Of a stretch of DNA of 52,461 bases, positions 5,088 through 36,212 are shown piece by piece. This stretch comes from a virus. Its lineage: Duplodnaviria > Caudoviricetes. The stretch is taken from positions 1 through 52,461 of the IMG/VR virus record IMGVR_UViG_3300008261_000093. The stretch is one strand, 5' to 3'. The notes under the pieces were generated by a model. The model did no database searches and was not told the origin of the DNA. It saw nothing but the letters and a program-made list of their open reading frames with translations. The first letter of the stretch is position 1, and each line of letters begins with the position of its first letter. The position numbers and the translations under genes were made by a program.

Positions 5088-5115
5088 ATCATACATCATG
5101 TGTGGCTGTTGTCAA
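5088..5115 (-). promoter_or_regulatory. Sigma70-type promoter for the packaging operon
   Basis: TTGACA-16 nt-TATGAT. Confidence 0.55.
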
Positions 5116-5491
5116 TACTATTTTTAGACTTCTTTTTTGATTTGGGTTTTTTGGAGTGGTGTTCAGCGTAGTGATGCTTTCTATGGCAATTTGCACACAA
5201 TACGATACATTTCTCTCGGATCTCTTTTATTGCCTGCCCAATCATCCCGTCATGGACTAGTTTAAAAACCTTTTTGTTCGAGGGGTCTCTGATTACGTGG
5301 TGAAAGTCTAATGCCGCTGGATGGTTTTCTGAACAATTGGTGCACTGCAATGTTTTCTTAAAGGCAAGCCATTCTTTACGAAGACGTGTTCTTCTTGCTT
5401 TTACAGCATCTTTAACCTTTTGCTTATGGTTTTCATAATGCCGACGCTGGGCTTCTAACCTTCTTGGGTCATTCGGATCTTTGTATGGCAT
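5096..5491 (-). CDS. HNH endonuclease
   Basis: CTNC...ALDFHH...LCANCHRKHH. Confidence 0.88.
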   Translation of the reverse strand: MPYKDPNDPRRLEAQRRHYENHKQKVKDAVKARRTRLRKEWLAFKKTLQCTNCSENHPAALDFHHVIRDPSNKKVFKLVHDGMIGQAIKEIREKCIVLCANCHRKHHYAEHHSKKPKSKKKSKNSIDNSHT

Positions 5492-5497
5492 GGCGTG

Positions 5498-5526
5498 AAT
5501 GTAATGGGTTGTATGTAGATTGTCAA
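5498..5526 (-). promoter_or_regulatory. Sigma70-type promoter, probably giving a leaderless HNH mRNA
   Basis: TTGACA-17 nt-TACATT; HNH ATG lies 7 nt after the -10 box with no SD. Confidence 0.6.
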
Positions 5527-5528
5527 TA

Positions 5529-5543
5529 TAGGGAAAACCCTTA
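5529..5543. promoter_or_regulatory. Palindromic operator-like site TAGGGAAAACCCTTA
   Basis: Sits just upstream of the -35 box; same motif family at 9.95-10.0 kb and 22.63 kb. Confidence 0.5.
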
Positions 5544-5803
5544 GGGGTGGGTGTCGATTTGGTGGGCTGCTAGCTGTGAATAAGAAAGCCGAAAAAGTCT
5601 CCACTTGCCACATCCTCGATTGTCGGCTTAACCACCCGTGTGTAGTGTACTTGAGTGTTGTGCAGATGCAACAGTGAGGTGTGAGTAACATATTTGTTAC
5701 GTTAAATACCTTTAGGTAATGTTTATATTACACAACTGTGTCTGTATAACGTGTGTATAGTCATATTTTTACCGGGCGCATTACGGCCAATACGTAAGCA
5801 TAG

Positions 5804-5842
5804 CCCCCGCCCCCCACCCCCTCTGGTCAGGGGGGTGTCCCC
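5804..5842. other. C/G-tract element at the transcription divergence point (possible genome terminus / G-quadruplex)
   Basis: CCCCC-G-CCCCCC-A-CCCCC...GGGGGG...CCCC; inverted repeat CACCCCCT/AGGGGGGTG. Confidence 0.4.
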
Positions 5843-5843
5843 T

Positions 5844-6315
5844 TAGCCCTCTGCCTATGGTGTAGGTCGCATCACTTAGTGTTGTGCCTATATCGCAGAG
5901 TATCGCTACGGGTTGGTCTATACCTGAGTATCCTTTAGACTATGGCGGGTAGGTTGTCCGTGCTGAATGTTGAGTCATTCTGATACTTAGTAAGCACAAT
6001 GGATTTGCCGAAACCATGCGGGAGAGTATCCGTGCAAAAGTGAGCAGAATACCGCTTACACACTAGAGCGAACCGCACCTGACCTAGTTGTCAGGATTAG
6101 GGTGGATTACCTGAGATAGCCGAAGTGCCTCAAGTAATATGCGTATCCCCCCTAAGTGTCGCAAACAATGGCAGACACAGGCACAGGGTTATGATGAGAT
6201 TCCTAGCCCTGACTGCAAAGTATCTAGGTCAAACCTCGGATACCCATAACAGTCAGGGTTTTTCCCCCTCGCAAGAGGGGTTTTTATCAAGTGCTTTAGC
6301 AATAGAGTGCTTGAT
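5844..6315 (+). ncRNA. Candidate large structured non-coding RNA (~470 nt)
   Basis: No credible ORF; more than 10 nested or consecutive helices, many with G-U pairs favouring the + strand; two GCAA tetraloops. Confidence 0.55.
6265..6285 (+). terminator. Intrinsic terminator
   Basis: CCCCTC-GCAA-GAGGGG followed by TTTTT. Confidence 0.7.
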
Positions 6316-6342
6316 TCTGACTAACTAACTTAGGAGTAAATC

Positions 6343-6864
6343 ATGGCTCTACTTAACGCCAAAGACCTCGAATCAAAAATTGCAACAATCGGTAAAACTG
6401 CTGGTGAGTTGCAGTCTGAGATTCAAATCGCCGCTGTAAATGCAATCGGCTACTCTATCGAGCATGGTGATATTCGTTACGGGCAAAAGTTGTTTGATGT
6501 TTTGCCTACGGGTGTCCGTCGTGCTAGTTTGGTGGCTTTCCTTGAAAAGCATGGCAATTTCTGTTATCTCAAAGATGACAAGAAGTTTGCGTTTTACAAG
6601 GCTCAAGATTCCTACGATGAAGTTGCTTTATTGGCTACCTCGTGGGCTTCTGCTAAGGCTGAGAACATCACATCTGAGTATGATGTGCAGAAGATGTTTG
6701 ATAGCCTCATGAAACGCATCGAGTCCGCTATCAAGAAATCTGGTGATGGCTCGGTCAAGGTTCTCAACACACCCCTGTATGACTACCTACAAGAAGCACA
6801 AGACCGCTTCAATGTTGAAAAGAATTTCGTTCAACCTGATTCAGTCGAGCAAAAAGTAGCGTAA
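6343..6864 (+). CDS. Early phage protein of unknown function
   Basis: 173 aa, TAGGAG SD; first gene of the + arm. Confidence 0.85.
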   Translation: MALLNAKDLESKIATIGKTAGELQSEIQIAAVNAIGYSIEHGDIRYGQKLFDVLPTGVRRASLVAFLEKHGNFCYLKDDKKFAFYKAQDSYDEVALLATSWASAKAENITSEYDVQKMFDSLMKRIESAIKKSGDGSVKVLNTPLYDYLQEAQDRFNVEKNFVQPDSVEQKVA

Positions 6865-6875
6865 TCTCGCACCCT

Positions 6876-6895
6876 GCACCCCCCTAGGGGGGTGC
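6876..6895. repeat. Perfect 20-bp palindrome GCACCCCCCTAGGGGGGTGC
   Basis: Read directly from sequence. Confidence 0.85.
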
Positions 6896-6929
6896 TCATC
6901 AAATCCACAACATTCATGGGAGTTATCTT

Positions 6930-7103
6930 ATGGGTTATGCCCTTCAATGTCTTAAGTTCGCTAATGCAGTTGTCCCCAAAGGTGCGTATGCCAACAAGTC
7001 GTATGCCAATAAACGGGATAACAAAAAACCATCTAGTGTAGAGATATACAAACCCAACGCATCGGGTGCATTAGAACTTGTAGTCCGTGTCAGCATTAAA
7101 TGA
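6930..7103 (+). CDS. Hypothetical 57-aa protein (not in ORF track)
   Basis: GGGAG SD at 6918-6922; MGYALQCLKFANAVVPKGAY... Confidence 0.55.
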   Translation: MGYALQCLKFANAVVPKGAYANKSYANKRDNKKPSSVEIYKPNASGALELVVRVSIK

Positions 7104-7129
7104 GTAATGTGTGTCCAATGTAGTCATGT

Positions 7130-7410
7130 TCGGGGTAATTATCCAATTTGAGGGTATAAAAAAACGGATAATTACAACGGATAATTACAAACCCTTATAA
7201 ATCAATATCCTAGAAGGGTAATTATCCAATTATCCAATTATCCGAAAAAAAACAATATATAGAGAATAATAGAAATGCTCTTATGGTCATGTGTGCGTGT
7301 GCGAATATATATCTCGTAATGGAATATACGGGGGGTGTTTTCGGAAAAAAACGCATTTTGGATAATTGTAATTAAATCAATGACTTCGGGTAATCCGTTT
7401 TAATTATCCG
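7130..7410. repeat. Iteron-like repeat cluster, putative replication origin
   Basis: Eight perfect AATTATCC/GGATAATT copies in both orientations, AT-rich, two TAAATCAAT elements. Confidence 0.65.
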
Positions 7411-7511
7411 CTTTATATCCATCGAATAAACTACATAAAACCCATTCAATCCATCACATTTTTCAACAAAAAACGCTAGTGCCCACTAACCAATTTCGAG
7501 GTTCACCTATC

Positions 7512-7661
7512 ATGCCAGACCACGATGCATTCGAAATAAAACGCAAATTATTTATCAAATCCACTAAACCCAAATTTTCCATGCAGTATGGAATTCTACT
7601 TTTAGCAGTTGCCGTCATCTATTTCGGCGGTCATGTTTTGTATTATTTATACACACATTAA
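7512..7661 (+). CDS. Small membrane protein
   Basis: GAGG SD; C-terminal hydrophobic helix. Confidence 0.6.
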   Translation: MPDHDAFEIKRKLFIKSTKPKFSMQYGILLLAVAVIYFGGHVLYYLYTH

Positions 7662-7679
7662 ACCCACGGGAGGCATCAA

Positions 7680-7907
7680 ATGAATTATTTGTGCACAGTT
7701 TGTTACGGAGGTCATGTTGACCCAGAGCGGGCGAAAGTCCTAATTAAAAACAACCAACCCATTACCTGCCTTGAGCATGGTGATGAACTAGCCAAGCAAA
7801 AGGCTAAGATGTATACAGTTGCACCAATGCATAAGTCTAACTATATGCTGATAACCAACCGAGATGACCTTAAAGGTCTGAACAACAAGGGAGGGCTGAT
7901 TAAATGA
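7680..7907 (+). CDS. Small zinc-finger-like phage protein (DksA/TraR-finger-like)
   Basis: CTVC...ERAKVL...TCLEH then PMHKSNY; GGAGG SD. Confidence 0.65.
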   Translation: MNYLCTVCYGGHVDPERAKVLIKNNQPITCLEHGDELAKQKAKMYTVAPMHKSNYMLITNRDDLKGLNNKGGLIK

Positions 7908-8143
7908 GTAAAGCCATGACACCCGACGAATTGAAATTCATACAGAAACTTATCGTAGATTCCAAGACACAAGCAACATATTGGAAGGTATGGAATGACC
8001 CCAAGACAACGAAACGGGTGTTAAAACTCATGGCTAAGTATGGCAAGAACAAGGTATACAAAACCATAGAAATACTTAAAGAGCATGAGCAACTACATTC
8101 AACCATGAAACAAGAATATGCACACCTATGGGTAAAGCCCTAG
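7904..8143 (+). CDS. Hypothetical protein
   Basis: Overlaps upstream stop; GGAGG SD. Confidence 0.7.
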   Translation: MSKAMTPDELKFIQKLIVDSKTQATYWKVWNDPKTTKRVLKLMAKYGKNKVYKTIEILKEHEQLHSTMKQEYAHLWVKP

Positions 8144-8176
8144 AAATACATTAAATCATACAACCACGGAGAACTT

Positions 8177-8686
8177 ATGACTGAACTTGAACCGGACCTG
8201 CAGCAGCAGATTGAAACTACACACCCTGAACTAGCCGAGCAACATGAAGAGGCTGAGATTGGGGTATTCCCAACGCTTAAAGACCGAGTCAATGTTCTTA
8301 CCCGCTTAAAACTACTAGGCATCCGAGAAGTAAGAGTCGAGTTTAGTGGAGGGGGCGACGACGGGTCGATCAACAATGTAGAGTGTGTATCCGCAGACAA
8401 TAGCACCATAAGTATTGAGGATGAATGCATCGAAGGATGGGCGACAGAAGGACATCAGACTCACGACGGCAAATGGACATCTGAGATTGTGCGTAAGGAC
8501 ATGGAACTTAGAGACTTACTCGAAGGGATGTGCAACGACGCATTGGAGATATCGAACTTAGATTGGTATAACAACGAGGGAGGTCAGGGGCATTTAATCA
8601 TAGACTTTTCCGAATCGCCACCCAATATCAGGCTTGAAGTGGGTATCAACACAATGCAGACAGACGATCATATGTTTAATCTATAA
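8177..8686 (+). CDS. DUF6878-like acidic protein
   Basis: VRVEFSGGGDDGSI and DWYNNEGGQG motifs (family recalled, not searched). Confidence 0.7.
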   Translation: MTELEPDLQQQIETTHPELAEQHEEAEIGVFPTLKDRVNVLTRLKLLGIREVRVEFSGGGDDGSINNVECVSADNSTISIEDECIEGWATEGHQTHDGKWTSEIVRKDMELRDLLEGMCNDALEISNLDWYNNEGGQGHLIIDFSESPPNIRLEVGINTMQTDDHMFNL

Positions 8687-8695
8687 GGAGAAACC

Positions 8696-9040
8696 ATGCA
8701 TCCATGCCATCATGCATTAACAAGTGTAAAGATGTGGGGCGGTAAACCCGAAGACTATACACAGATACACGATTGGTTTGACGCAACCAAGGAACAATTC
8801 GCTGACGCTAGGCATCGGGCTTTGAGGCATCACAGTCAGGGTATATTCGAATGTGAGCGAGTATTTGGTACAACCATAACCAACTCAGATGGGAAGCTAG
8901 TACCCGTGCGGTACATCGGAGAGCAACATATCAAAGAGGATTGTGGGGGTAGAATCCCTACTGTAGCTGACTGGTTTAGGAACATAAAGATGGAGGTGTG
9001 GATGAATCGAGGATATAAGATTGAGCCTGAAACAGTATGA
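8696..9040 (+). CDS. DUF6915-like His-rich protein
   Basis: MHPCHHA..WGG..IHDWFD..HRALRHH..EQHIKED; AAGGAG SD. Confidence 0.75.
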   Translation: MHPCHHALTSVKMWGGKPEDYTQIHDWFDATKEQFADARHRALRHHSQGIFECERVFGTTITNSDGKLVPVRYIGEQHIKEDCGGRIPTVADWFRNIKMEVWMNRGYKIEPETV

Positions 9041-9225
9041 CCAAGTACACGGCATTCATCGTATTGGTAGTATCCCTAGGTTTTCTTTTTGGGTGTTTGC
9101 TACATATAATTAGGGAAGACTTGAAAGGATTAGATCGTGGCAACACATTACAAGGGAAAACCAATCGAAGGAATACTAAGCGAACTCGCACACGCAGAGG
9201 AAATATTCGATCAGGTCGATCCTGA
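9037..9225 (+). CDS. Small membrane protein
   Basis: ATGA overlap with upstream gene; N-terminal TM helix. Confidence 0.5.
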   Translation: MTKYTAFIVLVVSLGFLFGCLLHIIREDLKGLDRGNTLQGKTNRRNTKRTRTRRGNIRSGRS

Positions 9226-9331
9226 TTCATTAGACCATCAGATGTTTGCTAAGTTGTGTAGAGGTTATGCGTATATTGCCATATCAAAAGCTAAATTAAC
9301 TGCATTACAACGGGAGGATACTAAATCATGA
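9137..9331 (+). CDS. Hypothetical protein
   Basis: AAGGA SD before GTG; stop overlaps next ATG. Confidence 0.55.
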   Translation: MATHYKGKPIEGILSELAHAEEIFDQVDPDSLDHQMFAKLCRGYAYIAISKAKLTALQREDTKS

Positions 9332-9477
9332 ATACATGGGATGTGGTACTTTGGTCGCTTTTAGTAGCGACTTTTTTTACGGCTCTAGCCATCGTGCTGA
9401 CAGGGGCTAATTGGTTTTTTGTTATGAGTTTAGTAGTTACCACGGCATGCATAACATACTTTTTGGGGGAAGCATGA
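9328..9477 (+). CDS. Two-TM small membrane protein, 49 aa (not in ORF track)
   Basis: GGAGG SD; MNTWDVVLWSLLVATFFTALAIVLTGANWFFVMSLVVTTACITYFLGEA; ATGA overlaps at both ends. Confidence 0.65.
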   Translation: MNTWDVVLWSLLVATFFTALAIVLTGANWFFVMSLVVTTACITYFLGEA

Positions 9478-9743
9478 CAACATTTACAACCGAAGATCGG
9501 ATCATGGCACAGGTAATTAATCCAATACAAGATCCAGCTCACATGAAGATAGTAAACAAACTACAAATTGTTGTGAGACTTAAAACCAACTACGGCAGTC
9601 AAGTAATATATCCTACATGTGACAAGGCTAAATTGTTTGCTAAGCTTTTGAATCAAGAGACTCTCACCCCGCTAAACATTCGGGTAATAAAAGAGTTAGG
9701 CTACGAAGTAGTTGTTAAACCATCTGAACCGAGTAGGCTATGA
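9474..9743 (+). CDS. Hypothetical protein
   Basis: Start MTTFTTEDR; NYG...YPTCDKAKLFA motif common in phage early proteins. Confidence 0.7.
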   Translation: MTTFTTEDRIMAQVINPIQDPAHMKIVNKLQIVVRLKTNYGSQVIYPTCDKAKLFAKLLNQETLTPLNIRVIKELGYEVVVKPSEPSRL

Positions 9744-10004: not shown

Positions 10005-10086
10005 GGTGTGAAGTGCAGTAGGGTATATACCATTGGTATATACCTTTTCTTTTTATCAATGTATTACTAACTTACTGAAAGGCATT

Positions 10087-17149: not shown

Positions 17150-17361
17150 ATTTTGTTAAATGGTCAGGAACAATCTTATGTTTGGTAGGCATTGGCTTTA
17201 CGAGCTTCAATATATACCCGATAAACATTTTCCTCAGTTTGATTGGTAGCGGATTATGGACATACGCTGGCTATAAACAGTCTGACTTTGCTTTATTTTT
17301 GGTAGAACTGGTTGCAGTTCTTTTTTATTTAGTAGGCGCAATTACTTGGGCATTGAAATGA
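17146..17361 (+). CDS. Small three-TM membrane protein
   Basis: KWSGT...YPINIFL...W hydrophobic pattern. Confidence 0.7.
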   Translation: MNFVKWSGTILCLVGIGFTSFNIYPINIFLSLIGSGLWTYAGYKQSDFALFLVELVAVLFYLVGAITWALK

Positions 17362-29117: not shown

Positions 29118-32100
29118 TTATAGCTCCGATGTTTGGCGAACAAAGCCACGATTAGCCTTGTTAGTTTGTACCCCGCCAACTACACTTCTTTCACGTTTAG
29201 CTTGTTCTTGTGGAGCTTTCAGTAGTATTGACAACGATTGTCTTTTAAATCCATTACGAACTCTTGACTGTTGTAGTTCTTCCCAATCATTTCGTGCATC
29301 TGATAGACCCACTCCACTTCTATACGCACGTGCATACGCACGTTTGATTTCGCTGGCCTTATCATTATAAAACTTCTCGTACTCAAACTTGGCATTTTGT
29401 AAAAATTGTTTATCGGTCAACTGCTTAGTAGGTAGCCCAATTCCGGCCATAAATGCTTCGGCAAAGCTAATATCCTCTGCTGGGATAAGTACATCGTCTC
29501 TACGTGATGTAACCCCTTCAGTGGCAAATCTATAGCCCTTCATGGCATTGGCTACACCGGTAGGCATAAGCTGCTCTAAGCCCTTGTAGTAGTCCCCCTG
29601 ACCCATTAATGATATGCCGTCAGCGGCTTTAAGGGTTAAACCACCGAATGGGCCGGTCATTAGGGCAAAGCCTGCTTCGGCAACACCCCTACGGCTAAAG
29701 TCTATATCTGTATATGGCAGGATTGAGAGCATCTGACCCATACCGAGCTTGCCCGAAAGGTCTACACCCAAAGCTGCAGGCACACCCTTAACTATTAAGT
29801 CTGCAAGGGTATCATCGCCAATAGCCCGACGCATAGCCAACTCTGGGTTATCAGGCTCATCCTCATCTCCAAAGACCAGACCATACAGGAATGATAGAGC
29901 CGCAAACCCTGGTAATCCCATTACCCCGCCCATAGCTGCGGTATGTCCAATTGTAAACATCAGGGCGCGGCGACCAATTCTGCGGGTATCTGCATCTTGA
30001 CCTGCAAATGCGTCGTTAAATAAGCGAGCCATCAGGCTTAGCTGGATAAGCTGGAACTTACGGAACTGGGTAGCTAAACGACCTAAACCTTTACGACTAA
30101 TACGTGGAGCATTAAATCCACTGTAGTCACCATGGGTTCTGTAGATTATGCTGTCAGCGTAGTTAATAGCATTGGCTTTATTGTTAGTTCTAGCCTCAAG
30201 ACGGTACGCAGCCACTGCAGTTGCTACACGGTTAATGGATTCAATGTCTTGGGCAATCCCACGGAGATATTCAGTAGCACGACCAAACTTATCTAACTTA
30301 GAGTCTTCAGTAGATCTCCAGCGTCCTAAGTCCTGCTCCAGGCTAATGTCAATTCTTCCCCGGTTAACCAGTTCTTCGACAACATCCTTAACATCCTGTG
30401 GCAGCTTGTTATAACTGTCTTCGCCAAGACCATGCCTACGAATAACGCTGGCAATATCAGTATACGCACGAGTAAACTCTTTCCATGACTTATCGTAGCC
30501 ATGCTTAGCACCGACTACTGGCAAGGACATCATGAATGGCTGAGTCATGTTCTGTAAATAGTAGGATGGGTTAGTTAGTAACATCCATACAGAAGTCGTA
30601 TTTAAAGCCTTATCAATAAATGGCGATGGCTCGTAGTCTAGCCCCATTACATGACGCTTCATAAACTCGTTGTAGTACCGGCTACGTTCTGCTCGAGTAC
30701 CTTCTGTGCCTTTTCTGGCTTCCTCTTTCATATCCCGTAAAGAGTCATAGATCTCTTCAGAATTCTCTAAAGACGAGATAAAGTGGGCTGTAGCACGGCC
30801 TTGCGTAGCAAATGCACGCATCATATCTTTTTCAGCACCGGCAATCTTACGGCGACGCTTCTCAGACTGGCGAGCAGACTGCTCAGACAACAGGCTTAAA
30901 TGAAGATCGGATAGTAAGCGATTAATCGTTCGTTCAGACTTGTCAGTAGTGTTGCTGTCTTGGGTGTCGGCTATTTGGTCAGGGGCAGACTTGGGGTTAT
31001 CCCTAATGCTTTCCTGATCTAGGTATGCCTGTGAACGACCAACAACTACATAATTACCAAAACGCTTAAGTGGAGCGTAAGGACCTTTATTTCCCATACG
31101 CATCAAAGTTCTGTATTCAGCTAACGAATTGGCTTTTTTCTTAGTAAGTTCGGCTACTTCAGTAACATCACCGGCTTTTTGCGCTGCAGCAATTAATGCA
31201 TCGTATTCGGTATTGATGTTGTTAATAACCGCATCTTGCATTGCCTTTAGCGTCTGGCGCCCATGATCAAAGACTTCTTTAATAAGGTTTTGGGCTACTA
31301 CAGGGAATGCTTCAAAACGAGTTTTTAACTCTGGGTCAATCTTCGAACCCTTAATGTTAGCGTCATAACCCCACTCACCTTTCATGGTTGAGTCTTTAAT
31401 AAATGCGTTTACGCTATTCTCGCCAACACCCCTTACCTCATTTGGTAAGGCATCATACTGTTGCAAAATCTTATCGATACGACGCTCAAGAGAAGTCCTA
31501 ATTGCTTGCTGGGCTTTTACCAACTGAACATAGCGTTTTGCCGATGGCAGATATTTAGATGCTAAGTCAGCCAAATCTTCGGTAAATGCAGCAAATGGTA
31601 AGCCCTTCTTAGCAAAGTCAATGATGTTATCGGTAATTGCTTGTAATGGACCACGGATTGGCTTGGGTAGTTTTGCTACCTGCTGGGCTGCTGTTTGACG
31701 TGCGGCATTTAAACCTGCTTTGGAGAACTGTACTTTTTCTGTGTCAGCACCAACTAAAGACAAAGCACGGAAGATGTCTTCGTCGCTAAACATGACGATG
31801 TTTTTGGTAATTCTTTCTTCCGATGTATTTTTACGAGATGTGGCATCTTTAAATTGATTACCTTTAATACCTTGTTCATACAAAAACTGAGACACTACCC
31901 GTTGAGCTTGTTGTCCAGAAGCTAATACTTCTTTGTCTTTTACAGCTTTAACTAACCATCGTGGATCACCTAAAGCAAGAGCTTTTATACCAAAATAAAG
32001 GTCATGTCCTGTGGCTTCTTCTAAAAGTACTCCAGCATTACCTAAAGCTGCCTCAATAACCATAGCTTGGTCGTCAGGAAGATTTTTTAAAATGTTGTAG

Positions 32101-35100
32101 ATATATGGCTGATCTTTAACCTTCTTATCAAGATCAAGAAGCTCTTCTGGACGAGCATTAATATCCACCCGCATTAAATTACCAGGTACGCCTTCAGTAG
32201 CTGTAGAAAAATCAATTGGATTTAGCTTGTTTAGCGCATCAATAAAGCGCTGATTTGTACCACTTCTGGTACCAATATCATTATTGTCGATACGTTTTTG
32301 CCAGCTTTCAATTTCAGCTTTAATAGCTTGCAAAACAGTTGGATTTTTTACAGATAATCCCATCATGGCAGATACAGGACTTTTCATGCGTCGTATAACA
32401 TCAAGAGCTACGTTTGTCTCAATATCATCACCAGTTTTACTAAAAGTAGCCATAACTGATCTACGCAGGTCTCTAACAGACCGGCCTTTGTAGCGATAGC
32501 CTACATCTTTAGTTTTGTTTTTAACATCAGTTTTCCAGTACTGATATGCAATTCCTGCTTTTTGAGCAAGATATGTACCCCAACCAAAAGCTTGAGCACC
32601 TTCTCCAGTACCCATAAATCTTTGGTCAAATCTACGGAATGAGGCTGCAGTACCATGCCATGTGCCACCTATTTCTAGTCGTGCGGCACCATAAGCAATA
32701 TTAATAATGTCCTGAGCGTCAATTTTGTCAGGATCAAACGTATTCAAACGACGAATTGCAGTTTTAAATGCAGCCCACAAAGTACGGAACCAACGGCCTA
32801 ATTGGGTATCAGGTTTAGTAGCGGTTGGGTCTATGTCGTGTAATACAGCTTCTTCTATAAAGTAAGCAATTAATTCTGTATTAGCTTGTTCATTTTCAAC
32901 ACCTGTAGAACGCTCTAACGCTTTTTTAGCAATTACTGACTCAATAGAACCGTCATCTTTTTTAGCCCACTCAAGAACAGTATCTACTAAGTAGTCAAAC
33001 TGCTTCTCTGTAAGCATCTTTTGGATGCCTAAATGTGAGCCTACTTCGTGCATAAACACAGCACGTGCTGTGCCTGGCTTAATATTATCTGCAATCAAAT
33101 ATGCTTTATTTTTCCAAACAAACGCTTGGTCACCGGCTTTAGGATTGGCTGCAATTTTAGCGTCAAGAGGCAAGTCTTTTACCGACTGGAAGACTTCTAC
33201 ACGACGAAGATTTTCACCACCAATAAAGTCTTTTAACTCTTGGCGTATTTCTTCAGCGTTGGAACTTTCGCCACGTTCAACAGCTTTAGAAAACTCTGGT
33301 TTATTGCGCTCAAAGACAATATTCATGTCGGCAAGTTTTGTATTACCAGTTTCTACTGAGGCTTGCCAATCATCTTGTACTTCTGGAGATAGCTCGTCGT
33401 AAGTAGGTAGCCCATACTGCTCAGCTTTAGTGTCCCACTCTTCTCGTGCTGTTTCTTCTAGCGTCCTCGCGCTGACTTCTTCATCGGCTTGTTCATCTTC
33501 TGTGGCAGCTTCGACCCTTTCGGTGTCTTTGCTTGGAACTCTCTTGCCAGTTTCGGCTTGTTTGCGTACAGGAACCCCTTTTGTGCTTCGCTTTTGAACG
33601 GCATTTTTCTCTTCTCCTTTACCAATACGAATCTCTTCGCGGCGGTTAATTTCTTTAACAATGGCTTGAATTTCTGCGTCTGTAATACGCTCATCAATAG
33701 CTAAGTTGTTGAGTTCAAAGTCTTTTAAAGCCTGTAAACCCTGCTTCTTAAACTTCTGATAAGTTCTGTTTGCAGCCGATGCATCCTCAAGTTCAGTAGC
33801 TCCGCTTTCTTGTGGGTTAAATACTCTAAATCCAGAAGCACCACCACCTTCTTTTTCGGTAGTTTCTTCACGACCTAAAGTCTGCTCACCCTCAGCTTCC
33901 ATAGCAGCATCTTCAGCCATGGATGGACCAGCCTCATCTGATACAGCAGCCTCACGAGCAGCCGCAGCTTCAAAGTCTAAGTCTTGCTCAGTAAGTGTTT
34001 CGGCTTCAGTAGCAGCTTCAGTTTCAGCCGTAGCTACAACCATTAGGTTATAAATTTGATCTTTTGTATAACCTAGGCGTTTAGCCGCTTCAAAAATACG
34101 AGCACCCCAAGTCTCTTGAGCTTTTGGCCCAGCAATTTGAGCAATACGAGCATCAGATACACCATACTCATCCGCAATCTGTACAGAGGTCTTTTCCCCT
34201 GTAAGGTATTCCATAACAATACCGCCATCACGAGTACCGAACGCTGAATTAACAATCGTTCTAATTCTCTCAATTGCCTCTAGGCGGTCGTCAGGAATTA
34301 CTTGCGTTTCTTGCTCTTGCCCAACACTGGGAATGGCATTATCGCCCCCACTGGTACTGGGCTCAACCCGTGGTCGTACACTTCCTGGTCCGACATCTTG
34401 GACTGTACTCGGGAGTATAAGGTTGCTTCCTGTCCCGACGGGTCGAATTTGGTCGGGTCGTACAGGCCCAACGAGTCCACCGCTTGTTTCTGCTGCTCTT
34501 CCTTGCTCTGGTACTGCTCCCACCCCGGTAGGCACTCGCAATTGCTGCTTTTCATTTTTTGCTCCTTTAGTTGTGTTTGTTTCGGATGCTAATTGCTGAA
34601 GGGCTACAAAAGCTGGTGCATCCTTACCAGTTAAAGCCTTATAAAAATTGTTGAGCTCATCGGCTTCTTTCAAAGCTTTTGGGCCTTCCAAAGTACTAAT
34701 TAAAACCTCTGCACGCTCGGCAGCTTCTGCTTTATCTGCCGAAGTATCGATACCCCACTCAGATAAGAATTTAACTGCAGCAGCATTAACAGCCTTGGCA
34801 GTAGACTTAAGAGGTACTTTTACAGCACCAGAAGATAGAGTTGCGCCAATAAGCGACTTTTGCTCTGGGGTCTTATCTTTATTAAGTGCGTCGAGCTCTG
34901 CCAAAAACTTAGTTGCATCAGCCTGACTAAATAGTGTTTTCCCTGCAATGTTATAACGACCAGCTACTTGAGTTGGCTGTACACCATAGGTAGAGGAAAT
35001 CTCGTCAAATGCAGCTTGAGTTTCTTGTTGTTTTTGAGCAGCTTGTTGTTGTGCTACTTGGGCTGCTTGCGCTTGCTGCGCTGCAGCAACTTGTGCTGAA

Positions 35101-36212
35101 GATGGTACGGGTGGGCCGGCTTGCTCAGGTGGTTGTGGGCCAACTAATGCTTCTCTTGGGGGTGGGCCGACCAGAATTTCTGAGCTATTAGCGTCAATAG
35201 CTTTATTAATAGCATTTTCGTCAGGGGTTTTACCCTCACCAGTACTGATGTTAGTAGAGCCAGGCAATAGACTATTAGGTGCAGTAACTCTATTTAAAGT
35301 ACCGACAACGGCGCCAGTACCACCGCCCAATAAACCACCTAAAGTAGCTGAGCCAATAACACCACTTAAAGGCTGAATAGTAGGAGCAAACTCACCTGCG
35401 GCAAGGTTAGCAGATAACTTAGTAACACCTTCTTCAACAAATTCTGAGCCTGCTTCAGCTGCAGTTGTTTTTAATATGCTTTTTGTACCAGCGGCAAATG
35501 CTTTATCAGCACCAACTAAACCTGACGCTGCACCAATAATAAATGGTAGTGGGGCTGCACCTCTAGCTGCACGGGTGGCAATCTGCTCACGCTCTTCAAT
35601 CGGTAAGTCTTGTAGTTCAGGAGCATTCATTACCATTTGGTAAGCATCGCCAGACGCATCACCACCTGCAAGAACACCACCGGCAGTACTACCGCCAGCT
35701 AAACCAGCTCGGGCAACACCTCTCTCGGTTAGACCAAGGGCGCCACCTATCATTCTTCCACCTTTAATTGCGGCACCTGGGCCAACAAAACTACCAATTG
35801 CTTGGGATGCGGCTAATAAAGGATTTTCTTTTACATATTTAAATGCACCTGCGGCTTGTTCACCTAAGTCTTCGGACTGCATTGAACGACCAAGTTGATA
35901 CTTAGCTTCGGCTGCAGTAAGTGATTGTTTCTTTTCACCTTCTTCAATAAAGCGACCGATAGCAGCAGAAGTTTCTGTGCCTGGTTTTACTAGATCAATA
36001 GCTGCTTTGGGTAAAGATGCTACAGCATTTCCAAACTCAATAACATAATCGTTAGCTGCGCCTAATACACCTCGTTTTTCGGATATACCTAAATAGCCTG
36101 CTACTTCCATGGGGGAAAGACCAGTTAGCTCGACCCCTTTATCTAAGATCTGTCGATCAGTTAGGTCTTTAGCCCATGGTGCTGCTTGGCGAATATCGTC
36201 AAACAAAGACAT
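29118..36212 (-). CDS. Large polyvalent internal virion / ejection protein (HTH, HEVGSH metallopeptidase-like, ADP-ribosyltransferase-like, PLxRFG domains)
   Basis: 2364 aa, last of the ejection cluster; TSVQIADEYGVSDARIAQI, FMHEVGSHLG, WHGT..FD..GEGAQAFGWGTYL, YAPLKRFG. Confidence 0.85.
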   Translation of the reverse strand: MSLFDDIRQAAPWAKDLTDRQILDKGVELTGLSPMEVAGYLGISEKRGVLGAANDYVIEFGNAVASLPKAAIDLVKPGTETSAAIGRFIEEGEKKQSLTAAEAKYQLGRSMQSEDLGEQAAGAFKYVKENPLLAASQAIGSFVGPGAAIKGGRMIGGALGLTERGVARAGLAGGSTAGGVLAGGDASGDAYQMVMNAPELQDLPIEEREQIATRAARGAAPLPFIIGAASGLVGADKAFAAGTKSILKTTAAEAGSEFVEEGVTKLSANLAAGEFAPTIQPLSGVIGSATLGGLLGGGTGAVVGTLNRVTAPNSLLPGSTNISTGEGKTPDENAINKAIDANSSEILVGPPPREALVGPQPPEQAGPPVPSSAQVAAAQQAQAAQVAQQQAAQKQQETQAAFDEISSTYGVQPTQVAGRYNIAGKTLFSQADATKFLAELDALNKDKTPEQKSLIGATLSSGAVKVPLKSTAKAVNAAAVKFLSEWGIDTSADKAEAAERAEVLISTLEGPKALKEADELNNFYKALTGKDAPAFVALQQLASETNTTKGAKNEKQQLRVPTGVGAVPEQGRAAETSGGLVGPVRPDQIRPVGTGSNLILPSTVQDVGPGSVRPRVEPSTSGGDNAIPSVGQEQETQVIPDDRLEAIERIRTIVNSAFGTRDGGIVMEYLTGEKTSVQIADEYGVSDARIAQIAGPKAQETWGARIFEAAKRLGYTKDQIYNLMVVATAETEAATEAETLTEQDLDFEAAAAREAAVSDEAGPSMAEDAAMEAEGEQTLGREETTEKEGGGASGFRVFNPQESGATELEDASAANRTYQKFKKQGLQALKDFELNNLAIDERITDAEIQAIVKEINRREEIRIGKGEEKNAVQKRSTKGVPVRKQAETGKRVPSKDTERVEAATEDEQADEEVSARTLEETAREEWDTKAEQYGLPTYDELSPEVQDDWQASVETGNTKLADMNIVFERNKPEFSKAVERGESSNAEEIRQELKDFIGGENLRRVEVFQSVKDLPLDAKIAANPKAGDQAFVWKNKAYLIADNIKPGTARAVFMHEVGSHLGIQKMLTEKQFDYLVDTVLEWAKKDDGSIESVIAKKALERSTGVENEQANTELIAYFIEEAVLHDIDPTATKPDTQLGRWFRTLWAAFKTAIRRLNTFDPDKIDAQDIINIAYGAARLEIGGTWHGTAASFRRFDQRFMGTGEGAQAFGWGTYLAQKAGIAYQYWKTDVKNKTKDVGYRYKGRSVRDLRRSVMATFSKTGDDIETNVALDVIRRMKSPVSAMMGLSVKNPTVLQAIKAEIESWQKRIDNNDIGTRSGTNQRFIDALNKLNPIDFSTATEGVPGNLMRVDINARPEELLDLDKKVKDQPYIYNILKNLPDDQAMVIEAALGNAGVLLEEATGHDLYFGIKALALGDPRWLVKAVKDKEVLASGQQAQRVVSQFLYEQGIKGNQFKDATSRKNTSEERITKNIVMFSDEDIFRALSLVGADTEKVQFSKAGLNAARQTAAQQVAKLPKPIRGPLQAITDNIIDFAKKGLPFAAFTEDLADLASKYLPSAKRYVQLVKAQQAIRTSLERRIDKILQQYDALPNEVRGVGENSVNAFIKDSTMKGEWGYDANIKGSKIDPELKTRFEAFPVVAQNLIKEVFDHGRQTLKAMQDAVINNINTEYDALIAAAQKAGDVTEVAELTKKKANSLAEYRTLMRMGNKGPYAPLKRFGNYVVVGRSQAYLDQESIRDNPKSAPDQIADTQDSNTTDKSERTINRLLSDLHLSLLSEQSARQSEKRRRKIAGAEKDMMRAFATQGRATAHFISSLENSEEIYDSLRDMKEEARKGTEGTRAERSRYYNEFMKRHVMGLDYEPSPFIDKALNTTSVWMLLTNPSYYLQNMTQPFMMSLPVVGAKHGYDKSWKEFTRAYTDIASVIRRHGLGEDSYNKLPQDVKDVVEELVNRGRIDISLEQDLGRWRSTEDSKLDKFGRATEYLRGIAQDIESINRVATAVAAYRLEARTNNKANAINYADSIIYRTHGDYSGFNAPRISRKGLGRLATQFRKFQLIQLSLMARLFNDAFAGQDADTRRIGRRALMFTIGHTAAMGGVMGLPGFAALSFLYGLVFGDEDEPDNPELAMRRAIGDDTLADLIVKGVPAALGVDLSGKLGMGQMLSILPYTDIDFSRRGVAEAGFALMTGPFGGLTLKAADGISLMGQGDYYKGLEQLMPTGVANAMKGYRFATEGVTSRRDDVLIPAEDISFAEAFMAGIGLPTKQLTDKQFLQNAKFEYEKFYNDKASEIKRAYARAYRSGVGLSDARNDWEELQQSRVRNGFKRQSLSILLKAPQEQAKRERSVVGGVQTNKANRGFVRQTSEL
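33458..33604 (-). CDS. Nested 48-aa basic protein (MPFKSEAQ... type) in the +1 frame of the large gene
   Basis: AAGGAG at 33619-33614, 9 nt before ATG; MPFKSEAQKGFLYANKPKLAREFQAKTPKGSKLP... Confidence 0.7.
   Translation of the reverse strand: MPFKSEAQKGFLYANKPKLAREFQAKTPKGSKLPQKMNKPMKKSARGR
34298..34555 (-). CDS. Nested 85-aa protein in the +1 frame of the large gene
   Basis: AAGGAG at 34567-34562, 6 nt before ATG; composition unlike a shadow ORF. Confidence 0.55.
   Translation of the reverse strand: MKSSNCECLPGWEQYQSKEEQQKQAVDSLGLYDPTKFDPSGQEATLYSRVQSKMSDQEVYDHGLSPVPVGAIMPFPVLGKSKKRK

Follow-up and report, generated by a model that had tools for sequence, protein, structure and literature searches.

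In an uncultured lake phage, a structured RNA of roughly 520 nt, with about 12 helices, precedes the replication genes; it is conserved across dozens of related phages. It fits no known RNA family, its newness being stated with respect to Rfam and the searchable text of the literature. The RNA probably decides whether transcription continues into the replication genes; more specifically, and with a confidence that falls somewhat short of an even chance, it is interpreted here as a new cis-acting attenuation or antitermination leader of ~520 nt, running from about 5766 to 6263 or 6285 on the + strand of the window (the whole 52,461-nt stretch of DNA that was analysed).

From 5' to 3', the element comprises a -10-like block (5748-5761), a C-rich tract, the ~12 helices and a terminator (6205-6263), followed in this phage by a second terminator (6265-6285); 3' of the terminators lie a G-U-rich hairpin (6286-6315), an invariant three-frame stop and the first gene of the replication arm. 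The region stands at the junction of the two genome arms, adjoining the replication genes and between divergent promoters. An earlier, sequence-only reading had proposed for 5844-6315 an uncharacterised large phage ncRNA, or a regulatory or antitermination leader, of no known family. This interpretation is supported, since a conserved and covarying RNA (36 relatives, no match in Rfam 15) was found directly before the first gene, with a conserved -10-like block on its 5' side and an intrinsic terminator, likewise conserved, on its 3' side. The element is larger than had been thought, starting ~80-100 nt upstream of 5844.

Conservation and covariation

The homologues, 36 of them distinct, were drawn from IMG/VR and metagenome contigs. 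In every one with enough sequence the RNA is directly upstream of the same first gene, and separated from it either by a stem with U-run or by the same followed by a second G+C terminator. The check on covariation in homologues that had been proposed with the first reading gave strong compensatory change. Thus, in the 3' part (35 sequences, 41 pairs) 94.3% of the cells are paired, against 75.5% in shuffles, 27 pairs have changed on both sides, and the covariation score is 0.437, compared with 0.145 in shuffles (0/500 reaching the observed value) and a maximum of 0.095 with the partners slid. The central part (24 sequences, 41 pairs) is paired in 83.4% of the cells, against 72.1% in shuffles, with 28/41 pairs changed on both sides and a score of 0.338 versus 0.168 (again 0/500). 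When the 3' core was taken from a model-fitted alignment, 94% of the cells were paired (67-75% in shuffles) and 21 of its 25 pairs had changed on both sides.

G-U pairs account for 118 of the 1149 cells (hand sum over the table of the 3' part), one U-G pair being present in 32/32 distinct sequences; an RNA on the + strand is thereby favoured, and the strand first assigned from the G-U pairs is borne out. The helices that had been listed from the sequence were all found at their coordinates by hand count, including the terminator stem, then given as 6207-6215/6250-6258 around 6220-6243.

Folding z-scores were less instructive. The interval 5844-6315 gave -6.37 on the + strand and -3.93 on the - strand, but its body (5844-6204, terminal hairpins removed) gave only -2.49, weaker than the -4.26 of a 472-nt coding control (6343-6814). 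The stability check suggested by the sequence-only reading is modest for the body, and the z-score does not discriminate here as proof of structure.

The 5' region

The elements of the 5' end are as follows:

5748-5761, + strand: promoter-like block, invariant or nearly so in all clades, with a -10-like hexamer (TATAGT) at 5756-5761
5774-5779/5798-5806, + strand: 5' stem, enclosing the hairpin 5781-5785/5793-5797 with conserved loop and 3' side
5804-5843, + strand: C-rich tract with runs of 4-6 C, and in this phage a local CCCCC/GGGGG hairpin (5811-5815/5830-5834)
5840-5914, + strand: 5' domain, with a possible closing helix 5840-5847/5905-5912 around 5849-5854/5895-5900
5859-5867/5886-5894, + strand: long hairpin of the 5' domain, with variable tip

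The hexamer appears across the clades as TATAGT, TATATT, TATATA, TATAAT or TATGTA, and the RNA would start at about 5766-5770. A sigma-70 scan called no promoter at 5748-5761, where no -35 was found, and called here only a leftward one (5526-5498). The block is not repeated genome-wide beyond chance (2 matches, with as many in 4/100 shuffles).

In an RNAalifold consensus of 12 window-type sequences the pairs of the 5' stem are all invariant, and only 3 of the 49 predicted pairs show compensatory change, these being at the tip of the long hairpin and in one pair of 5849/5900. By eye, the hairpin 5781-5785/5793-5797 is kept in other clades via U-G and other changes, and the tip of 5859-5867/5886-5894 is swapped with compensation among relatives. 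C-runs occur in every clade despite differing sequence, the G-run partner being missing in several of them. Moreover, the motif CUGCCUAU is present twice in the 5' domain and its copies change together between clades, also as judged by eye.

The central domain

The following helices were recognised in the central domain:

5915-5920/5936-5941, + strand: hairpin PA, with a nearly invariant 15-nt loop (5921-5935); 95.7% paired, 5/6 pairs changed on both sides
5960-5964/5993-5997, + strand: helix PB, with a 9-nt invariant loop; 88.7% paired, 4/5 pairs changed on both sides
5971-5975/5985-5989, + strand: inner helix of PB; 84.2% paired, changes mostly G-U to G-C
6018-6021/6073-6076, + strand: closing helix of a subdomain; 95.6% paired, 3/4 pairs changed on both sides
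6032-6034/6061-6063, + strand: helix within that subdomain; 91.0% paired, 3/3 pairs changed on both sides
6040-6045/6054-6059, + strand: hairpin within the same subdomain; 72.8% paired, 2/5 pairs changed on both sides
6078-6083/6090-6095, + strand: hairpin PD; 89.1% paired, 5/6 pairs changed on both sides
6097-6107/6145-6155, with 6106-6115/6129-6138 inside, + strand: long hairpin PE, differing in length among relatives

Within PB, the GAATG/CATTC pairing that had been drawn from the sequence is without compensation and is not kept in relatives. UGAGU/ACUYA (5971-5975/5985-5989) fits better, with 3/5 pairs unpaired in 6/23 sequences. The CGCTA/TGGCG pairing of the same sequence-only reading stands as a possible helix only. 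PE was assessed by eye and not by column counts, because MAFFT misaligns its short variants; its outer stem compensates, for example as UUAGGG/CCCUAA, UUUGGG/CCCAAA and GUAGGG/CCCUAG. Other candidate helices were discarded, namely 6000-6002/6014-6016 (paired in only 45% of cells), 5948-5950/5957-5959 (only about 65%) and a long-range GGGU/ACCU helix from RNAalifold, which clashes with the well-supported hairpin 6078-6095.

The 3' core and the terminators

The universally conserved core, of about 110 nt, consists of Ha, Hb, Hc and Hd in the following arrangement, with the second terminator after it:

6156-6160/6174-6178, + strand: hairpin Ha, first element of the core, with a 13-nt loop beginning GAAA or GCAA; 93.4% paired, 4/5 pairs changed on both sides
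6185-6191 (X)/6204-6210 (Y), + strand: helix Hb, candidate antiterminator, with a conserved GAUUCC in its loop
6205-6215/6250-6260, + strand: stem Hc of terminator 1, with a U-run at 6259-6263; 97.7% paired, 9/10 pairs changed on both sides
6220-6243, + strand: inner hairpin Hd; 91-92% paired, 8/10 pairs changed on both sides
6265-6280 with T5 at 6281-6285, + strand: terminator 2, a 6-bp G+C stem with GCAA loop, from a terminator scan

The internal loop of Hc (6216-6219 and 6244-6249, 4 x 6 nt) is invariant. An intrinsic terminator between leader and gene is present in 35/35 sequences, either as the stem of 10-11 pairs with U5 or as a second terminator: the stem and U-run of terminator 1 are the sole terminator in 24/35 sequences, and terminator 2 is found in the other 11/35, including the whole distant clade.

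In every clade the segment X appears to compete for its partner. The overlap of X:Y with the foot of the terminator stem amounts to 4-5 nt for most clades and to 2 nt for L014, and by eye X, Y and the terminator segment X' (6256-6260) change together, as in AAGGGUU/GACCCUU/AAGGG, AGCGUG/CGCGCU/AGCGU and GUGCUA/UAGCAC/GUGCU (X, Y and X' being given in that order). Fold prediction of the nascent core formed X:Y in 31/31 sequences; when the core was folded through the U-run, the lower Hc stem formed in 28/31. For the window, the predicted difference between the two states is 3.5 kcal/mol. When X was shuffled, the observed complementarity to Y was reached in 1, 3, 7, 14, 29, 40 and 47 of 2000 shuffles for seven representatives, and often in four others (152 for L031, 133 for L033, 318 for L003 and 785 for L019, each of 2000). 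By columns, Hb is 81.3% paired, with only 1/5 pairs changed on both sides; the helices found by the anchor search for L019, L020 and L044 were not Hb, and L031 and L033 were read by eye.

For AGGGTTA (6185-6191) a long-range closure or a switch had been suggested, with a partner at either 5844 or 6204. Pairing with 6204-6210, a segment shared with the foot of the terminator stem, was retained; long-range pairing with 5844-5850 was rejected, as there is no compensation, the 5844 side varying and 6185-6191 being invariant.

Between the terminators and the first gene

Downstream of the core the following features were identified:

6286-6315, + strand: hairpin He, 13 bp with three G-U pairs and a variable loop; 99.2% paired
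within 6314-6345, + strand: invariant motif AUUCUGACUAACU, with stops in all three frames at 6318-6328
6333-6336 and 6343-6345, + strand: ribosome-binding site (GGAG) and start codon of the first gene

He holds the U-G pair that is present in 32/32 sequences and shows many changes from G-U to G-C or A-U; this candidate for a processing site or mRNA 5' hairpin is probably the former. The motif AUUCUGACUAACU is kept even where the first-gene protein is only 46-47% identical. He and the invariant motif take up the 58 nt from terminator 2 to the start codon, and the He loop, where a -10 would have to sit, is not conserved as judged by eye, so that there is no room for a separate promoter of the first gene. 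In cultured T7-like phages of the phiKMV type, too, the first gene is a homologue of this one. Its 173-aa protein gave no Pfam family and, at E up to 0.001, no match to a fold in the PDB; the AlphaFold model of the protein has a mean pLDDT of 65.8.

Searches for known families and homologues

The whole window was compared with Rfam 15 (4227 models, including riboswitches, T-box, GOLLD, ROOL, HEARO and ribozymes) and gave 0 matches at the gathering score; at E up to 10 over 5450-6400 only noise was obtained (best E 0.6, at 18.9 bits where the gathering score is 47), in line with the first reading, which could assign no known family. The same search on the loci of 13 relatives found nothing inside the RNA.

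Two covariance models were built, R1 for the 3' core and R2 for the central domain. R1 matches 36/55 sources, including a clade with only 40-47% protein identity, which R2 does not reach; the 3' core is thus the constant part. Between them the models recover the RNA in all relatives whose sequence extends far enough upstream. Neither model matched in Ralstonia phage RSB3, Yersinia phage phiR8-01, Acinetobacter phage phiAB6 or Aeromonas phage LAh5, the best scores in these loci being 10.6 and 8.5 bits (E above 5). These four cultured Autographiviridae carry a homologous first gene. By eye, parts of the RSB3 and phiAB6 sequences resembled the PA loop, which R2 did not bear out.

Furthermore, nothing matched when 50,697 phage records were searched with blastn, a 25-base pattern (terminator plus leader motif) found 0 stretches in bacterial genome contigs, and in a scan with the 16-base leader motif 13 of the 30 stretches were chance matches lacking the RNA. 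No copy of the RNA away from the first gene was seen in the loci examined. No description of it was found in the searchable text of the literature. An IMG/VR-based catalogue of about 8,500 candidate structured RNAs (PMC10690425) may already list parts of this RNA.

Expression

The metatranscriptome coverage that had been suggested as a check was found in part: contigs from RNA libraries of two studies (three runs) extend over 5874-6230 as well as the gene downstream, though neither strand nor ends nor level can be read from such contigs and the libraries may contain DNA. In one run the depth was 60 on the RNA, from a contig that spans 5874-6188 and bears adapters at its two ends, versus 24 on the gene. 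Two runs from two studies contain a contig that begins at 5874, which is only a weak hint of an RNA end there; another starts within the 3' arm of He (one run only). None of the contigs of four RNA-library runs covers 5684-5873 or 6231-6309, which proves nothing.

Proposed mechanism and alternative explanations

Since X:Y appears to compete with the base of the terminator stem, the RNA is read as an attenuation or antitermination leader. The sequences show the structure, its conservation and strand, the two alternative pairings and the features of the terminator; for what lies beyond these, namely promoter, start site, actual termination or read-through and any input signal, we infer the following scheme. 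The host RNA polymerase would transcribe the leader from the -10-like block toward the replication arm, and the 3' core (Ha, Hb, Hc with its internal loop, and Hd) would act as the attenuator. During synthesis X (6185-6191) would pair with Y (6204-6210); the emerging 3' arm of Hc (6250-6260) would then displace X, giving the long stem and U-run that lead to termination. If X:Y were stabilised by some factor, the polymerase would read through into the first gene, and the large upstream domain may be what binds that factor, be it a protein, the polymerase itself or a small molecule. Transcripts that read through would carry He, as the probable processing site, and the invariant motif before the ribosome-binding site, while terminated transcripts would build up as a discrete structured RNA.

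The second terminator, in this phage and 10 other sequences, is beyond the reach of X:Y, so the Hc switch alone would not free the polymerase there. Also counted against the attenuator were the single both-side change among the five Hb columns, the frequent shuffle matches in L031, L033, L003 and L019, the missing sigma-70 call at 5748-5761, a first-gene protein with neither family nor fold match, and an aptamer-like part that, at about 400 nt, would be unusually large. A further form of the idea, to which we give rather little credence, makes the RNA a master switch on its own: the folded leader would engage the polymerase, or Rho via the C-rich tract, or would sense the state of the host, licensing read-through of one or two terminators without a phage protein, and its terminated form would be a second, trans-acting product.

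Some of the same observations could be explained by a free-standing, abundant ncRNA acting in trans during take-over of the host (for example as a scaffold for a host factor, or as its decoy or sponge), with the terminator or terminators setting its 3' end and the genes receiving leak-through. Its own -10-like block and one or two terminators, in tandem in this phage, would suit such an RNA, as would the many invariant loops and internal loops, typical of partner-binding RNAs, the contig over 5874-6188 at depth 60 versus 24 for the gene, and a C-rich tract that could load or trap Rho. In all cases, however, the RNA is joined to one and the same gene, with no space left for a further promoter and no copy elsewhere in the loci examined, and the competition among X, Y and X' would be left without a role; this explanation is considered somewhat doubtful. 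That same competition would not be needed by processive antitermination of the type of HK022 put, in which the nascent fold would stay on the polymerase and make it resist the leader terminators and those further along the arm. Such a mode of action would account for the position between promoter-like block and terminators, and for tandem terminators beyond the explanation of a local switch; it would also suit an arm with terminator-like sites on the + strand (9353-9372 with T7, 17304-17321 with T6, and 10020-10046), few sigma-70-like promoters (21 versus 43 expected) and no phage RNA polymerase recognised among the ORFs scanned. Nothing like a known antitermination RNA was found in Rfam, and the RNA is about seven times larger than put; this possibility is considered unlikely.

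A role at the DNA level or in replication appears very unlikely. The transcript might prime or activate an origin, for instance through a hybrid at the C/G-rich tract, or the region might hold sites for a phage DNA-binding protein; its location at the junction of the two arms, adjoining the replication genes, the G-runs of the template strand, conserved in composition, and the two direct copies of an 8-10-nt motif that change together between clades are in line with this. Against it, many of the compensating pairs are G-U pairs that can form on the + strand alone, which argues for RNA structure, and it is the terminator core and not the C-tract that is best conserved. Finally, the region might be a mere series of terminators, processing hairpins and stems arisen by chance, and not one functional RNA. 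This would agree with the modest z-score of the body beside that of the coding control; it is highly improbable, being largely refuted by the covariation counts, with compensatory change in helices throughout and invariant loops kept at 40-60% protein identity.

Comparison with known systems

The attenuation leader favoured here shares with known attenuators and riboswitch platforms a structured leader directly before a gene and a terminator whose 5' stem base may also be part of an upstream alternative helix. It differs from them in a putative sensor part of ~400 nt, in having no Rfam riboswitch or T-box match, and in the second, unconditional-looking terminator of 11/35 sequences. The put RNA of HK022 is about 70 nt long, with two stem-loops. 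As there, a nascent phage RNA between an early promoter (here a promoter-like block) and terminators could act on the polymerase; the present RNA is far larger and multi-domain, with competing helices that put does not need. PMC9378689 presents put as a short cis-element and processive antitermination RNA.

Several hundred nucleotides, many helices, conserved junctions and an occurrence in lake metagenomes and phage DNA are common to this RNA and to GOLLD, ROOL, HEARO, OLE and raiA, which are large ornate bacterial or phage ncRNAs (10.1101/2024.12.08.627333). In contrast to these, the present RNA has no Rfam match, is fixed before one gene, ends in a terminator and has no link to tRNA clusters. 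In T7, an early leader with an RNase III site precedes gene 0.3; a long untranslated leader likewise heads the early genes here, with a hairpin ~30 nt before the first start codon. It differs in its covarying helices, its invariant loops and the conservation of its terminator, and the leaders of the four cultured Autographiviridae showed no R1 or R2 match. In the late leader of lambda (pR'-tR'), which gives 6S RNA and is subject to antitermination by Q, control resides in a DNA site together with a protein, and the 6S RNA is not known to adopt an ornate conserved fold. A promoter, a short terminated RNA and then genes needing read-through would be common to both systems, the arm here being one of replication genes and not of late genes.

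Few large structured ncRNAs have many covarying helices, and every one of them has led to new biology. The present one occupies the most strategic place of the genome and is kept down to 40% protein identity among uncultured lake phages. Should it control read-through, the RNA would be a new attenuator or antitermination RNA of unusual size, and would show how phages without a polymerase of their own time their early genes. The ~110-nt core, with its invariant 4 x 6 nt internal loop and proposed two-state design, is compact enough to lend itself to structural studies and to transcription in vitro.

Genome setting and extent of the RNA

The + strand element preceding the first gene of the replication arm, from about 5766 to 6263 or 6285, is a conserved RNA of about 520 nt that stands outside any curated family; its most probable role is that of a cis-acting leader gating transcription into that arm. 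It lies within the intergenic region 5492-6342 of the window (an IMG/VR virus record of 52,461 bp, about 91% complete), which is the divergence point of two gene arms:

5096-5491, leftward arm: HNH endonuclease, followed by large terminase and portal; the arm resumes at the opposite end of the record
5748-5761, +: conserved block with the -10-like hexamer TATAGT (a perfect TATAAT in one relative)
6156-6160/6174-6178, +: helix Ha
6185-6191 (X) with 6204-6210 (Y), +: helix Hb
6205-6215/6250-6260, +: long stem Hc, with X' at 6256-6260; with the U-run 6259-6263, terminator 1
6220-6243, +: hairpin Hd
6265-6280 and five T, +: terminator 2
6286-6315, +: 13-bp hairpin, followed in order by an invariant three-frame-stop motif, the ribosome-binding site and the start codon
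6343-6864, rightward arm: 173-aa protein, followed by ATPase, DNA polymerase, exonuclease, helicase and primase-like genes

The sequence-only reading had placed a structured element at 5844-6315; the interval is structured, but conservation starts upstream of it, at 5748-5761. The block recurs in every clade, even the most distant, and so do the A/U-rich spacer, the small hairpin with its conserved loop and the C-run tract that come after it. Since no -35 was found for the block and a simple sigma-70 scan called only the leftward promoter of the HNH arm (5526-5498), we infer that the RNA starts near 5766-5770. The C-runs of 5804-5843 (G-runs on the template), whose composition is kept in all clades while the sequence differs, might serve to load or trap Rho, or might make the template prone to form G-quadruplexes. 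Two direct copies of an 8-10-nt motif, spaced by about 35 nt (5851-5858 and 5886-5893), occupy the same places in relatives and co-change between clades, which suggests alternative pairing with the intervening stretch or two protein-binding sites.

Farther upstream, a good leftward sigma-70-like promoter (5498-5526; TTGACA, 17 nt, TACATT) directly precedes the HNH/terminase arm. Between the divergent promoters, the block 5579-5628, with an inverted repeat (5587-5592/5623-5628) and then a T-rich run on the - strand, is kept upstream in several relatives and is spanned by an RNA-library contig (5544-5683); its role may be that of a - strand terminator or insulator, or else of a small RNA.

Relatives, family searches and the conserved core

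Protein-guided scans yielded five loci in IMG/VR and, out of 223 pattern matches in metagenome contigs, another 26; a scan with the 16-base motif preceding the ribosome-binding site gave 30 stretches, 17 with the RNA and 13 chance matches; removal of 12 duplicates left 36 distinct sequences. Identity of the first-gene protein across these relatives falls from 98% to 40%. According to their labels, the runs in which the stretch occurs are metagenomes from lake water, freshwater or aquatic sources; 14 runs contain half or more of its words, and 13 studies are represented among the runs with the stretch. Positions 5751-6342 align end to end with closer relatives at 76-92% identity, and distant relatives share conserved blocks. 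Invariant single-stranded blocks lie between stems whose two sides co-change, and entire peripheral hairpins are exchanged or differ in length, a pattern which is that of a functional RNA.

Rfam 15 gave no match at the gathering score in the whole window, in line with the sequence-only reading, which could assign the element to no known family, and only noise at E up to 10 over 5450-6400; nothing was found inside the RNA in the loci of 13 relatives. Searched with blastn, 50,697 phage records held no match for the window RNA or for two distant-clade versions, the combined terminator and leader motif pattern had no match in 185,579 prokaryote species (one genome each), and a full-text literature search found no description of the RNA. 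A catalogue of candidate structured RNAs from IMG/VR may include parts of it (PMC10690425).

The covariance model of the 3' core, R1 (128 positions, 25 pairs), recovers 36 of 55 sources; the 19 without a match are 13 chance loci, two loci with less than 100 nt upstream and four leaders of cultured Autographiviridae. The model of the central domain, R2, detects the RNA in the window and in two partial loci of the main clade (from a single run), with no match in the clade of 40-47% protein identity and none in cultured phages. The universally kept part is therefore the 3' core, made up of Ha, Hb, Hd and Hc, the last with an invariant internal loop of 4 x 6 nt; equally universal are the terminator, the hairpin after it and the motif before the ribosome-binding site.

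Covariation, strand and folding energy

The sequence-only reading had proposed looking for covariation in homologues, and the scores indeed exceed those of shuffles in both the 3' part and the central domain.

Table. Covariation among relatives. Columns: region; sequences; pairs; cells paired, observed vs shuffles; pairs double-changed; covariation score, observed vs shuffles; score with slid partners
3' part, structure named by us; 35 (32 distinct); 41; 94.3% vs 75.5%; 27; 0.437 vs 0.145 (0/500 shuffles); at most 0.095
3' core alone; 31; 25; 92.4% vs 67.5%; 21; 0.612 vs 0.167; at most 0.154
3' core, alignment fitted to R1 (biased towards R1's own structure); 36; 25; 94.5% vs 67.3%; 21; 0.672 vs 0.170; at most 0.129
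Central domain 5903-6166; 24 of 26 anchored (one fragment and one N-containing sequence left out); 41; 83.4% vs 72.1%; 28; 0.338 vs 0.168 (0/500 shuffles); at most 0.094

Of the 30 pairs that RNAalifold predicted unaided for the 3' part, 18 show compensatory change. Two short candidate helices of the central domain are weak. The 5' domain (5748-5916) is near-invariant among 12 window-type sequences, and its fold is the least certain part because compensation occurs in only 3 of 49 predicted pairs. G-U pairs, which would be A-C mismatches on the opposite strand, account for 118 of 1149 cells in the 3' part by our own sum, one U-G of the hairpin 6286-6315 being present in 32/32 sequences; the RNA is thus read from the + strand, as had been proposed from the window alone.

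Each helix listed in the initial reading was found in its place. The folding z-score of 5844-6315 is -6.37 on the + strand and -3.93 on the - strand, but is not decisive by its controls: 5844-6204, with the three terminal hairpins removed, gives -2.49, with 1/100 shuffles as good, and an equal-length coding stretch of the first gene (6343-6814) scores -4.26 against dinucleotide shuffles, so that folding z-scores alone mislead in this genome. The decisive evidence for the RNA is comparison with relatives and not the z-score.

Terminators, competing helices and proposed mechanism

Hc with its U-run is the sole terminator in 24/35 sequences, while 11, including the window phage and the whole distant clade, carry a second one (a small G+C hairpin and a U-run). 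The 58 nt from terminator 2 to the start codon are wholly taken up by the covarying hairpin and the invariant motif, with no conserved -10 among them; therefore, the first gene would have to be transcribed through the terminator(s).

Y, at the base of the terminator stem, is complementary both to the downstream X' and to the upstream X. In every clade X resembles X', and both co-change with Y (the L031 type, one relative's version, was judged by eye). The pairing of 6185-6191 with the 6204 side, already pointed out in the sequence-only reading, therefore recurs as complementarity in every clade, but column-wise only one pair of the helix is changed on both sides. For seven representatives, 1 to 47 of 2000 shuffles of X do as well as the observed complementarity, and for four others 133, 152, 318 and 785 of 2000 do; with such mixed results and a column count of one pair, support for X:Y is real but moderate. 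When the nascent core is cut just 5' of the Hc 3' arm, the minimum-energy fold holds at least four X:Y pairs in 31/31 sequences; when it extends through the U-run, the lower Hc stem forms in 28/31. For the window the two states are predicted at -25.0 and -28.5, a gap of 3.5 kcal/mol.

On these models, the X/Y/X' arrangement is an attenuator design: X:Y would pair first during transcription, and the terminator stem would displace it unless X:Y were held. What is new here would be a variant of a known transcription control. Attenuation is nevertheless held tentatively, since terminator 2 of the window phage is out of reach of X:Y, which favours over a simple switch either a free-standing terminated RNA or a leader acting processively on the polymerase like put, the antitermination RNA of HK022. 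The former we regard as possible though doubtful; the latter, with which further terminator-like sites and few sigma-70-like promoters within the arm also agree, appears rather improbable. The compensatory changes obey RNA rules, which makes a function in replication priming or on the level of DNA less likely.

Regarding transcription, which the initial reading had suggested checking in metatranscriptomes, RNA-library contigs from three runs in two studies cover 5874-6230 and the first gene. Run X15 has a 361-base contig, bearing adapter sequence at each end, that spans 5874-6188 at a depth of 60, vs 24 for the gene contig, and X17, from a different study, also has a contig starting at 5874; another X15 contig starts about 5 bases before 6310, within the 3' arm of the hairpin 6286-6315. 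Such contigs carry neither strand nor true ends and the libraries may contain DNA, so they are expression hints only.

The first gene and minor observations

Distant relatives of the 173-aa protein occur in 203 records of cultured phages, most of them Autographiviridae (tblastn; 29-33% identity, E about 1e-10 to 8e-6 among the matches listed). The protein belongs to no Pfam family, and its predicted model (mean pLDDT 65.8) gave no fold match. In Ralstonia phage RSB3 and Acinetobacter phage phiAB6 the homologue is the first annotated gene, with more than 1 kb upstream devoid of annotated genes. The invariant TGACTAACTAA (6318-6328), just 5' of the ribosome-binding site, has stops in all three frames, and RSB3 has a similar TGACTAAC ahead of the ribosome-binding site of its own homologous first gene. 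The scanned ORFs included no recognisable phage RNA polymerase; on the - strand, a 2364-aa ORF of the structural arm (29118-36212) has a weak sub-threshold match to the ADP-ribosyltransferase domain of polyvalent proteins.

Two distant relatives show sub-threshold type II hammerhead matches (L035:3043-3107 and L034:1369-1428; 32.8 and 30.2 bits, gathering score 37) adjoining the 3' side of the first replication-arm gene, that of L035 with the core motifs GAAAC, GUC and CUGAUGAG. No hammerhead match was found in the window at 6300-9500; a strong G+C hairpin without a U-run (6865-6900) lies there right after the first gene, at the position of the hammerhead-like element in the distant relatives.
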